Below the pieces are notes generated by a model. It was given only the letters and a program-made list of their open reading frames with translations, had not been told where the DNA came from and ran no database searches. A program made the position numbers and the translations under genes. From IMG/VR virus record IMGVR_UViG_3300027896_000019, positions 35,820 to 99,819 of that record: a DNA stretch of 64,000 nt; one strand, given 5' to 3'. Position 1 is the stretch's first letter. Each line of letters begins with the position of its first letter. This document shows positions 31,883 through 33,730 of this stretch, piece by piece. Source of the DNA: a virus (taxonomy: Duplodnaviria; Heunggongvirae; Uroviricota; Caudoviricetes).

Positions 31883-31911
31883 TTGACATAACTACTTTAA
31901 TGTAATATTAT
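31883..31911 (+). promoter_or_regulatory. sigma-70-like promoter (TTGACA-17-TATTAT) for the vWA-TM-SPFH operon
   Basis: Consensus -35 and a good -10, read directly from the sequence. Confidence 0.6.
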
Positions 31912-31932
31912 AAAATAAAAAGGAGAATTTTG

Positions 31933-32559
31933 ATGAAAAATGGATTGACTGAAATTATTTTTTTATTAGACCAAAGTGGTTCAATGGAATGTAGTAAACA
32001 TGATGCCATTAAAGGTTTTAATAAATTTTTAGAAGAACAACAAAGCTTAGATGGAGAAGCAAGATTAACTGTAGCGTTTTTCGACCACAGGTATGATGTA
32101 TATGCTAGTAATAAGGATATAAAAGAGGTTAAACCAATTAATATTGAAGTATATAAACCATCTGGTTCAACAGCGTTATACGATGCAGTAGGCGATACTA
32201 TTGAAGATGTTGGAGTAAGATTGAATAATACAGCAGAAGAATTAAAACCAGAAAAAGTTGTTATTGTTATTTTAACAGATGGTGCAGAAAATTCTAGCGT
32301 TCGTTATACATCAGAAAAAATTAAATGTATGATTGAACATCAAACCTCAATATATAAATGGGAATTTATATATCTAGGTGCAAACCAAGATACAATGTTA
32401 TCAGCTTCTTCGTTAGGTATTAATAATTTTACATCATATTATTCTAATTCAAAAGGATTTGCTAATGTTTATTCCACAGTTAGTAGTTCTGTTAGTAGTT
32501 ATAGAACATCAGGATATATGACACCAGTATCTTCAACGGAGGTAAAAGATGTTCAATAA
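31933..32559 (+). CDS. vWA-domain protein (TerY-like size) with Ser-rich tail
   Basis: AGGAG RBS. MIDAS LLDQSGSM, GSTALYDAV and ILTDGAEN motifs. Confidence 0.65.
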   Translation: MKNGLTEIIFLLDQSGSMECSKHDAIKGFNKFLEEQQSLDGEARLTVAFFDHRYDVYASNKDIKEVKPINIEVYKPSGSTALYDAVGDTIEDVGVRLNNTAEELKPEKVVIVILTDGAENSSVRYTSEKIKCMIEHQTSIYKWEFIYLGANQDTMLSASSLGINNFTSYYSNSKGFANVYSTVSSSVSSYRTSGYMTPVSSTEVKDVQ

Positions 32560-32812
32560 AGCTTTAATGTTTATAGCAATATGGGTTATTTATTTAATTA
32601 TGGTAAATATTTTTTATATTAATACTATGAATGATGCTATGACTAATCAATTTCAAAATAATGGATATTCAACAAGTCTATACAATTTAGTGCATGTTTT
32701 ATGGGCAATATCATGGATTGCTCCTGTTGTAGCTTCATGTACTTTATTTGATACATCAATTAAAAAGTTTATTAAACTATTAAAGGAGATAATACGAAAT
32801 GAAAAGAAATAG
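32549..32812 (+). CDS. small membrane protein (2-3 TM, possible NfeD-like partner)
   Basis: GGAGGT RBS; hydrophobic segments; overlaps its neighbours, indicating coupling. Confidence 0.45.
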   Translation: MFNKALMFIAIWVIYLIMVNIFYINTMNDAMTNQFQNNGYSTSLYNLVHVLWAISWIAPVVASCTLFDTSIKKFIKLLKEIIRNEKK

Positions 32813-33704
32813 CATAATAGCAGTAATTATATTAGGTGTATGTATGTGTTTAACATTAACAGCATGTAATTACCCAGATGTTGTTGAAATTCAACCATCA
32901 CAAACAGCGTTTTTGATACCTATGATGAACAATACAACTAATCAAGGTAAATTTCAAAGTGAAGAATTTCTTATTAAAAATTTAGTTGCAAGTAAACGAA
33001 TTTTAGTTGAAAAAGAATGGGTAAGCGGTAATGGTTATATGCCTATAGCAAGAGTTATTATTGTTGAACGTAAACCAGAGACTAGAGAATGGACAGAAAG
33101 TGAAAAAAATGGTACATCATCAACTAATGAAGGATTGATTGCAGAATCTAAGGAGTCAATTGGCTTTATGGCAAGAGCAAATTGTTCTGCACAAATTGAT
33201 GAATCTGATGCTCCAAAGTTTTTATATAGATATAATAATAAACCTTTAAAGGAAGTTATGGACACTGAAATCAGGGCTATGATTGAAAGTAAATTTGTAG
33301 AGGAATGTTCAAAGAGAACATTAGATGAAATTATTTCAAATAAAGGTGATATTATTAAAAATGTAAAAGATACAGTTATTCCTTATTTTAAAGATAGAGG
33401 AATAAATGTTACTGTGTTAGGTTTAAAAGGTGAATTAACATATCTTAATTCTAAAATTCAAGAATCTATTGATGCTAAATTTAGTTCTGCACAAGAAGTT
33501 ATAACTCAACATAATTTTAATGAAAAGGTTTTGAGTAAAGCCAAAGCAGATGCAGAAGCAGTTAGAATTCAAGCAGAAACAATGGAAAAATCTATTAGAT
33601 TAAAAGAGATTGATAATCAAAGTAAAGCTATTGACAAATGGGATGGTAAGATGCCACAAATGGTTACAAATGGGAATACTATGTTTAATATTCCTGTTAA
33701 ATAA
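32799..33704 (+). CDS. SPFH/band-7 (prohibitin/flotillin-like) domain lipoprotein
   Basis: Lipobox LTLTAC after a signal peptide. SPFH-like core (...RTLDEIISNKGDIIKNVKDTVIPYFKDRGINVTVLGLKGE...AKADAEAVRIQAE). Confidence 0.6.
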   Translation: MKRNSIIAVIILGVCMCLTLTACNYPDVVEIQPSQTAFLIPMMNNTTNQGKFQSEEFLIKNLVASKRILVEKEWVSGNGYMPIARVIIVERKPETREWTESEKNGTSSTNEGLIAESKESIGFMARANCSAQIDESDAPKFLYRYNNKPLKEVMDTEIRAMIESKFVEECSKRTLDEIISNKGDIIKNVKDTVIPYFKDRGINVTVLGLKGELTYLNSKIQESIDAKFSSAQEVITQHNFNEKVLSKAKADAEAVRIQAETMEKSIRLKEIDNQSKAIDKWDGKMPQMVTNGNTMFNIPVK

Positions 33705-33708
33705 ATAT

Positions 33709-33730
33709 GGGGCGCAAAGCCCCTTTTAAC
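33709..33730 (+). terminator. rho-independent terminator
   Basis: GGGGC-GCAAA-GCCCC followed by TTTTAAC. Confidence 0.7.

Follow-up and report, generated by a model that had tools for sequence, protein, structure and literature searches.

Membrane scaffolds of the SPFH type (prohibitin, stomatin, flotillin, HflK/C) are universal, and structures of their cages have been solved recently. In those structures rings or cages of the proteins close off a patch of membrane, with an N-terminal membrane segment in each subunit, and some of them enclose NfeD as a partner or FtsH as a client; to our knowledge, few of the clients and partners of SPFH proteins are known. Here we analyse three overlapping genes, encoding a vWA-domain protein, a membrane protein of 87 amino acids (aa) and an SPFH lipoprotein, in a 64,000-nucleotide (nt) stretch of a Caudoviricetes phage (positions 35,820 to 99,819 of IMG/VR record IMGVR_UViG_3300027896_000019; the whole of this stretch is called the window below). 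An earlier note on this DNA had taken the three genes together as the unit. This did not hold: the conserved unit is the pair of SPFH lipoprotein and small two-helix partner and not the trio, because partner and SPFH genes are adjacent or fused in 144 of the 147 groups of homologues that could be assessed, and a vWA gene was found near them in 4 of 152. We propose that the pair forms a two-component, outward-facing SPFH scaffold, made of a lipid-anchored SPFH protein and its two-helix partner, and we put the probability of this at roughly 0.6.

Among described systems, the SPFH-NfeD operons (QmcA-YbbJ of Escherichia coli; FloT-YuaF/NfeD2 of Bacillus subtilis) likewise pair an SPFH gene co-directionally with a gene for a small membrane protein, in a unit that moves between genomes. 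The fold of QmcA (8z5g) is matched by the SPFH protein of the window, and the partner gene of the latter is also adjacent, co-directional and co-inherited. In contrast to those operons, the window partner has neither an NfeD/OB-fold domain nor a Pfam family and consists just of two helices and a loop, with the loop as its conserved part. The SPFH protein itself is lipid-anchored and predicted to face outward, unlike QmcA, for which a cytoplasmic orientation is described.

HflK/HflC of E. coli and the prohibitins are alike in a different respect, as in the structural model the window protein appears to have their outward (periplasmic or intermembrane-space) cage architecture of N-terminal anchor, SPFH1/2 domains and long helix. 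It differs from HflK/HflC in being the product of a single gene and in having a lipobox anchor, and the NCBIfam HflK/HflC equivalog models gave no match to it at E <= 0.1; each locus that we studied carries one SPFH gene, with no adjacent paralogue pair.

Phage SPFH lipoproteins of the family phrog_200, including gp18 of Pseudomonas phage PaP4 and gp010 of Desulfovibrio phage ProddE, match the C-terminal half of the window protein and have in common with it a KWDGK[LM]P end; those of PaP4 and ProddE also carry a lipobox. These distant members, from phages of Pseudomonas, Ruegeria and Desulfovibrio, are about 24-27% identical to the window protein over the C-terminal half to three-quarters. Directly upstream of the SPFH gene in PaP4, RpAliso and ProddE lies a membrane open reading frame (ORF) of 72-79 aa which, unlike the window partner, has a short loop and no A-x-x-Q motif; a small partner may be a general theme of phage SPFH genes. 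PM0222, an HflK/C-like lipoprotein from a prophage of Pasteurella multocida which may be a further relative, has been studied only as a virulence factor (PMC9872710).

A 2009 survey of prokaryotic SPFH proteins made no mention of lipoproteins and gave no partner for subfamilies 3, 4 and 6-12 (PMC2636767), and papers that mention phage SPFH genes leave them unexplained or read them as signs of lysogeny (PMC8540360, PMC10269572). We found no functional study of phage SPFH genes in the literature searched. Such genes are now labelled 'lipoprotein', 'transposase fusion protein' or 'HflK/C', and have been used as lysogeny hints without evidence; our analysis offers a correction of these annotations. 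It also makes the object of interest narrower than the earlier note held, as a two-gene core, and yet wider, as that core is found in many phages and bacterial phyla.

The SPFH lipoprotein and its two-helix partner

The 301-aa protein matches Pfam Band_7 (PF01145) at 35.0 bits, with a cut-off of 23.6, over residues 77-249, and its C-terminal half, which ends in the motif KWDGKMP, matches phrog_200 'lipoprotein' at 2.9e-21. Its N-terminus reads MKRNSIIAVIILGVCMCLTLTAC, with a lipobox L-T-A-C that ends at Cys23 and fits the pattern [LVI][ASTVI][GAS]C; the cysteine does not vary among 35, nor among 33, aligned homologues. An AlphaFold 2 (AF2) model with a pLDDT (predicted local distance difference test) of 80.8 gives an N-terminal anchor, SPFH domains and a helix of about 60 residues at 218-280, and Foldseek matches it with probability 1.0 to full-length prohibitin, stomatin, erlin, HflK/C and QmcA subunits. 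As PDB sequence searches with the protein, single or as a profile, gave no match, it is placed among solved SPFH structures by fold comparison only. The protein is predicted to face outward from the cytoplasmic membrane, and an assembly into rings or cages would follow the behaviour of proteins with this modelled fold. Thus the SPFH lipoprotein call of the earlier note is borne out by the Band_7 score, the lipobox with its invariant cysteine and the modelled fold; of the domain searches which that note had proposed, Pfam Band_7 and VWA scored above their cut-offs and NfeD gave no match.

The 87-aa protein, called a small polytopic membrane protein in the same note, does have two hydrophobic segments with basic ends. 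Members of its family are 75-110 aa long with a loop of about 35 residues; since both ends carry net positive charge and the loop net negative charge, we predict that the ends are inside and the loop outside (N-in/C-in), with a basic cytoplasmic tail. Conservation is concentrated in the outward-facing loop and not in the helices: the loop has the motif A-x-x-Q-[LMF]-x-[ND]-[SG] (NDAMTNQFQNN in the window), and one loop glutamine is invariant across the alignment.

The suspicion that this SPFH protein has a partner other than the usual NfeD type proved right, as neither the window partner nor any one of 29 diverse members matches a relevant Pfam family, NfeD included. Its 87 residues are fully taken up by the two helices, the loop and a short tail, and there is no NfeD (OB-fold) domain. 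PADLOC and NCBIfam gave no meaningful match for any of the three proteins of the locus, and no description of the partner family was found in the literature searched. An exhaustive profile search of 1.84 billion protein representatives found 219 clusters (50% identity) at E <= 0.001, which for so short a protein is a lower bound; such a search was needed, as a word-indexed one with the partner alignment gave 11 proteins only. Judged from these comparisons, the partner is a previously unnamed family.

To ask how far the two genes belong together we collected SPFH homologues from GenBank phages, IMG/VR (80 loci), one genome per bacterial species (72 loci), Joint Genome Institute (JGI) metagenomes (80 loci) and single look-ups, giving 232 loci, or 152 groups at 90% identity. 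The IMG/VR relatives came from an alignment-based scan, a single-sequence pattern scan having returned none. The partner profile was seeded with five small ORFs just upstream of SPFH genes (from the window, two related phage contigs, Bacillus phage G, gp64, and a bacterial metagenome-assembled genome, MAG) and iterated on ORFs of no more than 160-170 aa, as an unrestricted profile drifted into SPFH proteins via natural fusions.

A profile match lies directly upstream of the SPFH gene in 105 groups and directly downstream in 4; in 2 groups one gene is inserted between partner and SPFH gene; and in 13 groups the partner is fused in frame to the SPFH protein with a profile match. In a further 11 groups an in-frame fusion was seen by its two helices only, and in 9 an unalignable two-helix ORF occupies the same place. 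No partner was found in 3 groups, and the upstream sequence was absent in 5. Partner-profile matches in the 232 loci were confined to ORFs adjacent to, or fused with, SPFH genes, and all-against-all clustering of the neighbours gave no third conserved neighbour of the pair.

The fusions (Table 1), which were also independently predicted as proteins of 409-454 aa, retain a signal peptide and lipobox between the partner part and the SPFH part. Pairwise identities of partner and SPFH protein are also correlated (mirror-tree r = 0.64, Mantel p = 0.001, n = 118). Natural fusion and divergence in parallel imply that the two proteins form a physical complex. In L006, the closest syntenic relative of the window, a 169-aa methyltransferase-like ORF lies between the two genes, which shows that the pair tolerates a one-gene separation.

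We propose that the N-terminal lipid anchor holds the SPFH protein on the outer face of the cytoplasmic membrane; since its N-terminus carries a lipoprotein signal that would be cleaved off, acyl chains in the outer leaflet would be the sole hold on the mature protein, whose SPFH body would lie outside. There it would assemble, as other SPFH proteins do and as its modelled fold would allow, into a ring or cage enclosing a patch of membrane. The partner would be the membrane-spanning subunit that reaches the cytoplasm, replacing the N-terminal helix, or the NfeD partner, of other SPFH proteins, and its outward loop, with the invariant glutamine, may bind the SPFH protein one to one, as linkage and fusion suggest. 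In the fusions, a third hydrophobic segment with the lipobox joins the two parts, which fits the proposed topology exactly. If lipoprotein signal peptidase cuts inside a fusion, one precursor would give both proteins in equal amounts.

Several observations weigh against this scaffold reading. Three groups have no partner, and in some 20 others, missed by the profile, the partner was recognised by size, position and hydrophobic helices only; the AF2 model of the SPFH protein is a monomer, with a predicted template modelling score (pTM) of 0.64; many of the 'genome' loci are MAGs, which are prone to mis-binned phage contigs; and a vWA gene lies within the pair in L166 and overlaps the partner gene in the window, and vWA genes lie near the pair much more often than expected from the prevalence of their family, roughly 0.4% of phage records.

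Two other roles for the proteins can be weighed here. The pair might be a phage-made analogue of HflK/C, whose external cage captures FtsH or another membrane protease and so alters protein stability, for example in a lysis-lysogeny decision; we regard this as unlikely. Prohibitins likewise pair with m-AAA proteases. The fold and outward topology are like those of HflK/C, whose cage encloses FtsH (7vhq, 7wi3, 9cz2), and such a role was proposed for phage SPFH genes by the authors of genome papers (PMC8540360, PMC10269572), but the window protein has no sequence match to HflK/HflC models or to any solved SPFH chain, is encoded by a single gene where HflK/C are two paralogues, and is anchored by lipid and not by a membrane helix. 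Moreover, SPFH genes are also present in phages described as strictly lytic (PMC8540360), and none of the loci has an FtsH-related gene linked to the pair.

The other candidate role makes the 87-aa protein a class II holin or antiholin, with the SPFH lipoprotein setting the time or the limits of hole formation; it draws on the two membrane helices, small size and charged C-terminal tail of the 87-aa protein. We consider it very improbable and have rejected the holin reading: the gene is in a replication cluster and not beside a lysin gene, the family has chromosomal copies in bacteria and fusions to SPFH proteins, and its conserved part is the outward loop rather than the helices. Among the scanned neighbours the one member of a lysin-type family is the gene, four genes upstream, for a protein with a 3D domain, a domain of cell-wall-acting enzymes.

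Distribution and origin of the pair

The loci that carry the pair are from phages, from metagenomes and from genomes of bacteria. The earlier view that a phage-borne vWA plus SPFH set is unusual holds only in part: large phages commonly have SPFH lipoprotein genes (84 GenBank phage records; 87 IMG/VR matches), and the pair is also cellular. Among phages, Bacillus phage G (gp64-gp65) was the one cultured carrier found. Cellular copies lie among housekeeping genes in Clostridia, Planctomycetota and Oxalobacteraceae. Those in isolates (Anaeromicropila populeti, Orenia metallireducens and a Massilia sp.) have as neighbours genes for UvrA, a short-chain dehydrogenase, an MFS transporter, transketolase, a GGDEF protein, UvrB and glutathione S-transferase; Nuo subunits take that place on a closed Phycisphaeraceae chromosome; and a copy in a Clostridia MAG (61% identity) is flanked by a K+ transporter and a KdpD/Usp sensor. 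At two bacterial loci that seem unrelated (L101 and L167) a DUF4349 gene lies near the SPFH gene, which may be coincidence or a weak association.

This distribution bears on whether the pair is a superinfection-exclusion device, in which the outer-face lipoprotein blocks DNA entry of later phages. The phage lipoproteins Llp of T5 and Ltp of TP-J34 act in superinfection exclusion, and an outward-facing lipoprotein encoded in an early region behind a host-type promoter would suit such a task. Against it, the pair stands among housekeeping genes, with no phage genes nearby, in chromosomes of several phyla, which points to a general cellular function; neither partner nor SPFH protein resembles known exclusion proteins or has a PADLOC match. 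We therefore hold exclusion to be quite unlikely, and less likely than a protease-directed function. More generally, that bacterial chromosomes carry the pair too speaks against a function confined to phages.

Returning to the scaffold that we favour, during infection the pair would most likely re-organise or protect the host membrane from outside, and the enclosed client could be a membrane protein of the host, for example a protease or an entry channel. With low confidence for each, we rank membrane organisation or protection first, an HflK/C-like effect on a protease second and superinfection exclusion third. The frequent carriage of the pair by large phages suggests that they manipulate the membrane organisation of their hosts from outside. 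The locus suggests a compact and apparently self-sufficient two-gene SPFH system, in which a lipid anchor replaces the membrane helix, and offers a small, tractable system for studying the tie of an SPFH cage to the membrane and the contents of the cage. A broader proposal, which we hold only tentatively, is that the pair represents an undescribed, widespread class of outer-face SPFH systems with a non-NfeD spanning partner, repeatedly captured by large phages for a membrane compartment of their own, and that one phage lineage recruited the TerY-like vWA protein as a cytoplasmic input or output that acts by way of the partner.

In a neighbour-joining tree of the SPFH proteins, the window groups with the phage-like contigs L005, L006/L009, L168, L169 and L172, and this clade adjoins, as a sister, copies in Clostridia contexts (56-62% identity). 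Such a position fits capture from a host lineage and suggests a clostridial host; the host of this phage is probably a low-G+C (guanine plus cytosine), clostridial bacterium.

The earlier note had described the three genes as a self-contained moron operon. A moron would have its own promoter and terminator, and the unit does have a promoter-like site before it and a hairpin (a weak terminator) after it, so that part of the description stands; recent acquisition does not. The G+C content of the module is 28.6%, against 27.5-27.8% in its flanks; L006, with all three genes, and L005, with the pair, have the same neighbourhood, running from primase/GIY-YIG-like genes to RecJ-like and ribonucleotide reductase genes; and the promoter is one of a series. 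We have rejected the recent-moron reading, as the composition is not foreign and the position is the same in these relatives. Since the G+C content matches the flanks, related phages hold the pair at the same place and copies are found in chromosomes, we think it probable that the pair is a cellular, host-derived and long-resident module taken up by large phages, with its nearest bacterial copies in Clostridia.

The vWA gene and the transcription unit

The vWA protein is of the TerY/YegL type. The earlier assignment, from a motif LLDQSGSM of the metal-ion-dependent adhesion site (MIDAS), was confirmed by a Pfam VWA score of 26.4 bits (cut-off 23.8), by conservation of the MIDAS residues D13, S15, S17, T80 and D116 in the family alignment and by an AF2 model (pLDDT 94.4) with the vWA fold, the best PDB matches of which are ArnB (8s05) and integrin I domains. 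The protein matches phrog_7371 at 8.7e-54, has no signal peptide and a Ser/Thr-rich C-terminal tail, and is predicted to be cytoplasmic. It resembles TerY/YegL proteins in its length of about 210 aa, cytoplasmic location and complete MIDAS, and several of its homologues were named YegL, which belongs to the TerY-type vWA group, by JGI. ArnB, among its best structural matches, is the vWA protein of a phosphorylation-controlled pair.

TerY-P triads, in which a vWA protein stands beside a PP2C phosphatase and a Ser/Thr kinase, differ from the present case: PADLOC gave no TerY-P match for the vWA protein, and no phosphatase or kinase domain was found in the three genes or in the scanned genes from 27965 to 39296. 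In most phages this vWA gene is alone. The family is present in 217 of 50,697 GenBank phage records (about 0.4%), as a stand-alone gene with varied neighbours in unrelated phages including actinophages and jumbo phages; we found no functional study of it in the literature searched.

Its link to the pair was sought with a family profile over the flanks of the SPFH genes, up to 5-10 kb on each side as contigs allowed. All four vWA-bearing groups are phage-like contigs (Table 1). No vWA gene was found near the SPFH genes of the closest homologues, L168 and L169 (63-64% identity; 5 kb upstream covered), nor near that of L005. We lean towards seeing the vWA protein as an accessory that the core function does not need and that is tied to the pair in this phage lineage alone; it would be a cytoplasmic, metal-dependent binding module recruited there.

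The alternative, in line with the earlier note, is that all three proteins form one system, in which the vWA MIDAS binds the basic tail of the partner, or some other ligand, and so links a signal in the cytoplasm to the SPFH cage outside, in the service of exclusion, lysis timing or anti-defence, the roles that the note had put forward as possibilities. The three genes overlap in the window under a common promoter and hairpin, and the vWA gene is beside the pair in L006, inside it in L166 and 3.9 kb downstream in L244, so that linkage was kept while order changed; the vWA-bearing loci are not mutual nearest relatives in the SPFH tree, and four of 152 groups is an enrichment over the prevalence in phage records. 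Because of this enrichment and of linkage kept despite changed order, we count a functional tie in this phage lineage among the live rivals. As a three-protein system in general, we judge it unlikely: within the flanks covered the vWA gene is absent from 148 groups, those of L168, L169 and L005 included; its family occurs by itself with varied neighbours in actinophages and jumbo phages; the tail of the partner has, by inspection, no feature that marks vWA-linked loci; and the four cases may reflect only two or three events. In L244 the run of ORFs between the SPFH and vWA genes looks, by eye only, like a set for NAD salvage, with isochorismatase-, phosphoribosyltransferase-, adenylyltransferase- and NAD-synthase-like members.

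In the window the three genes are, as the earlier note had it, co-directional and translationally coupled: the successive overlaps are of 11 nt (vWA and 87-aa genes) and 14 nt (87-aa and SPFH genes), and a GGAG-type ribosome-binding site precedes each ORF. For the vWA gene, the ATG at 31933 suits an AAAGGAG ribosome-binding site better than does the TTG at 31930. It is probable, from this layout, that the three are one translationally coupled transcription unit.

The sigma-70-like site said to bracket the unit upstream is indeed present. It occupies the 62-nt gap preceding the vWA gene and has the top promoter score in the 10 kb from 28000 to 38000. Sites of this 11/12 type are no rarer than chance at 30% G+C (9 observed in the window against 7 +/- 2.6 simulated), so the credibility of this one comes from its position in an intergenic gap. 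Four other plus-strand sites have a perfect TTGACA, at 17158, 23561, 40225 and 47479, and all of them lie in gaps between listed plus-strand ORFs of at least 90 aa; spacing in the five is 17-18 nt, and the site at 23561 matches at 12 of 12 positions. Because all the plus-strand sites with a perfect TTGACA are in ORF gaps, they suggest a series of host-type promoters along the replication cluster.

As for the terminator claimed at the other end, the hairpin is real and is the sole all-G/C 5-bp hairpin in the window (0.05 expected), but it is weak as a terminator, with a folding energy of -12.5 kcal/mol and z = -1.9. Only four T follow it, which is why a terminator scan scored it on the minus strand only, and the ribosome-binding site of the next gene begins 8 nt past this T-run. 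Given the four T and the modest folding energy, it is probably a leaky intrinsic terminator or a stabiliser of the 3' end of the unit.

Setting in the window and coordinates

The window (30% G+C) contains a long plus-strand cluster of replication and nucleotide-metabolism genes. This is a large phage that shares replication genes of the SPbeta type, and the unit lies inside its early/replication cluster. A near-identity DNA search with 28000-38000 found no match among GenBank phages. A 99.8-kb contig on record encodes exactly this SPFH protein. The placement given in the earlier note, between primase/GIY-YIG and nucleotide-metabolism genes, is right for the primase upstream and for the RecJ-like, ribonucleotide reductase and dUTPase genes downstream; the GIY-YIG call lacks Pfam support, and the counterpart of that ORF in L006 (34% identity) is recorded with PF01541.

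Table 1. Features of the window and of the related loci named in the text; locus coordinates are those of the locus concerned.
Feature	Position	Strand	Remarks
Sigma-70-like promoter site TTGACA-17-TATTAT	31883-31911	+	11/12 matches; 22 nt before vWA start codon
vWA protein, TerY/YegL type	31933-32559	+	208 aa; complete MIDAS; probably accessory to the core pair
Two-helix membrane partner of the SPFH lipoprotein	32549-32812	+	87 aa
SPFH/Band-7 lipoprotein	32799-33704	+	301 aa; signal peptide, lipobox, SPFH domains, long helix 218-280
Hairpin GGGGC-GCAAA-GCCCC, then TTTT	33709-33730 (stem-loop 33709-33723)	+	directly after SPFH gene
Three overlapping ORFs together	31933-33704	+
102-aa ORF	31562-31870	+	earlier GIY-YIG call; no Pfam match at E <= 1e-3
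3D-domain protein	27965-28543	+	beside YorH-like gene, as in SPbeta-type phages; four genes upstream of the unit
505-aa protein with DUF2828/DUF7788	24341-25858	+	phrog_850 'RNA-binding protein' at 8.2e-135
RNA ligase	43782-44873	+	phrog_968
DnaB-like helicase			in window cluster; distant kin of Geobacillus virus E3 and Brevibacillus phage Sundance helicases
Toprim primase			upstream of three-gene unit
RecJ-like DHH protein, ribonucleotide reductase, dUTPase			downstream of three-gene unit
DNA polymerase			also encoded in window, as is the RNA ligase
SPbeta-type YorF and YorH genes			window replication cluster
vWA-bearing group: window			order vWA, partner, SPFH; vWA overlaps partner gene
vWA-bearing group: L006/L009			window order, with methyltransferase-like ORF between partner and SPFH
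L006, 169-aa methyltransferase-like ORF	4468-4977
vWA-bearing group: L166 (89.9-kb phage contig)	1208-3080		order partner, vWA, SPFH; vWA overlaps partner gene
vWA-bearing group: L244			vWA 3.9 kb downstream
L244, ORF run between SPFH and vWA genes	2337-6640
In-frame fusions of partner and SPFH protein			P0318, P0338, P0344, P0370; L048, L057, L063, L075-L079, L081, L082, L085, L087
Distant phrog_200 locus L248	988-2040		PaP4 gp17-gp18
Distant phrog_200 locus L249	1041-2154		RpAliso
Distant phrog_200 locus L250	1164-2262		ProddE
DUF4349 gene, L101	7025-7855	-	near SPFH gene
DUF4349 gene, L167	9825-10601	-	near SPFH gene

Elsewhere in the window, the 505-aa protein resembles Ro60/TROVE and would bring a vWA domain of its own, and thus a second vWA-type protein, to the same phage; with the RNA ligase it could form an RNA-repair pair.

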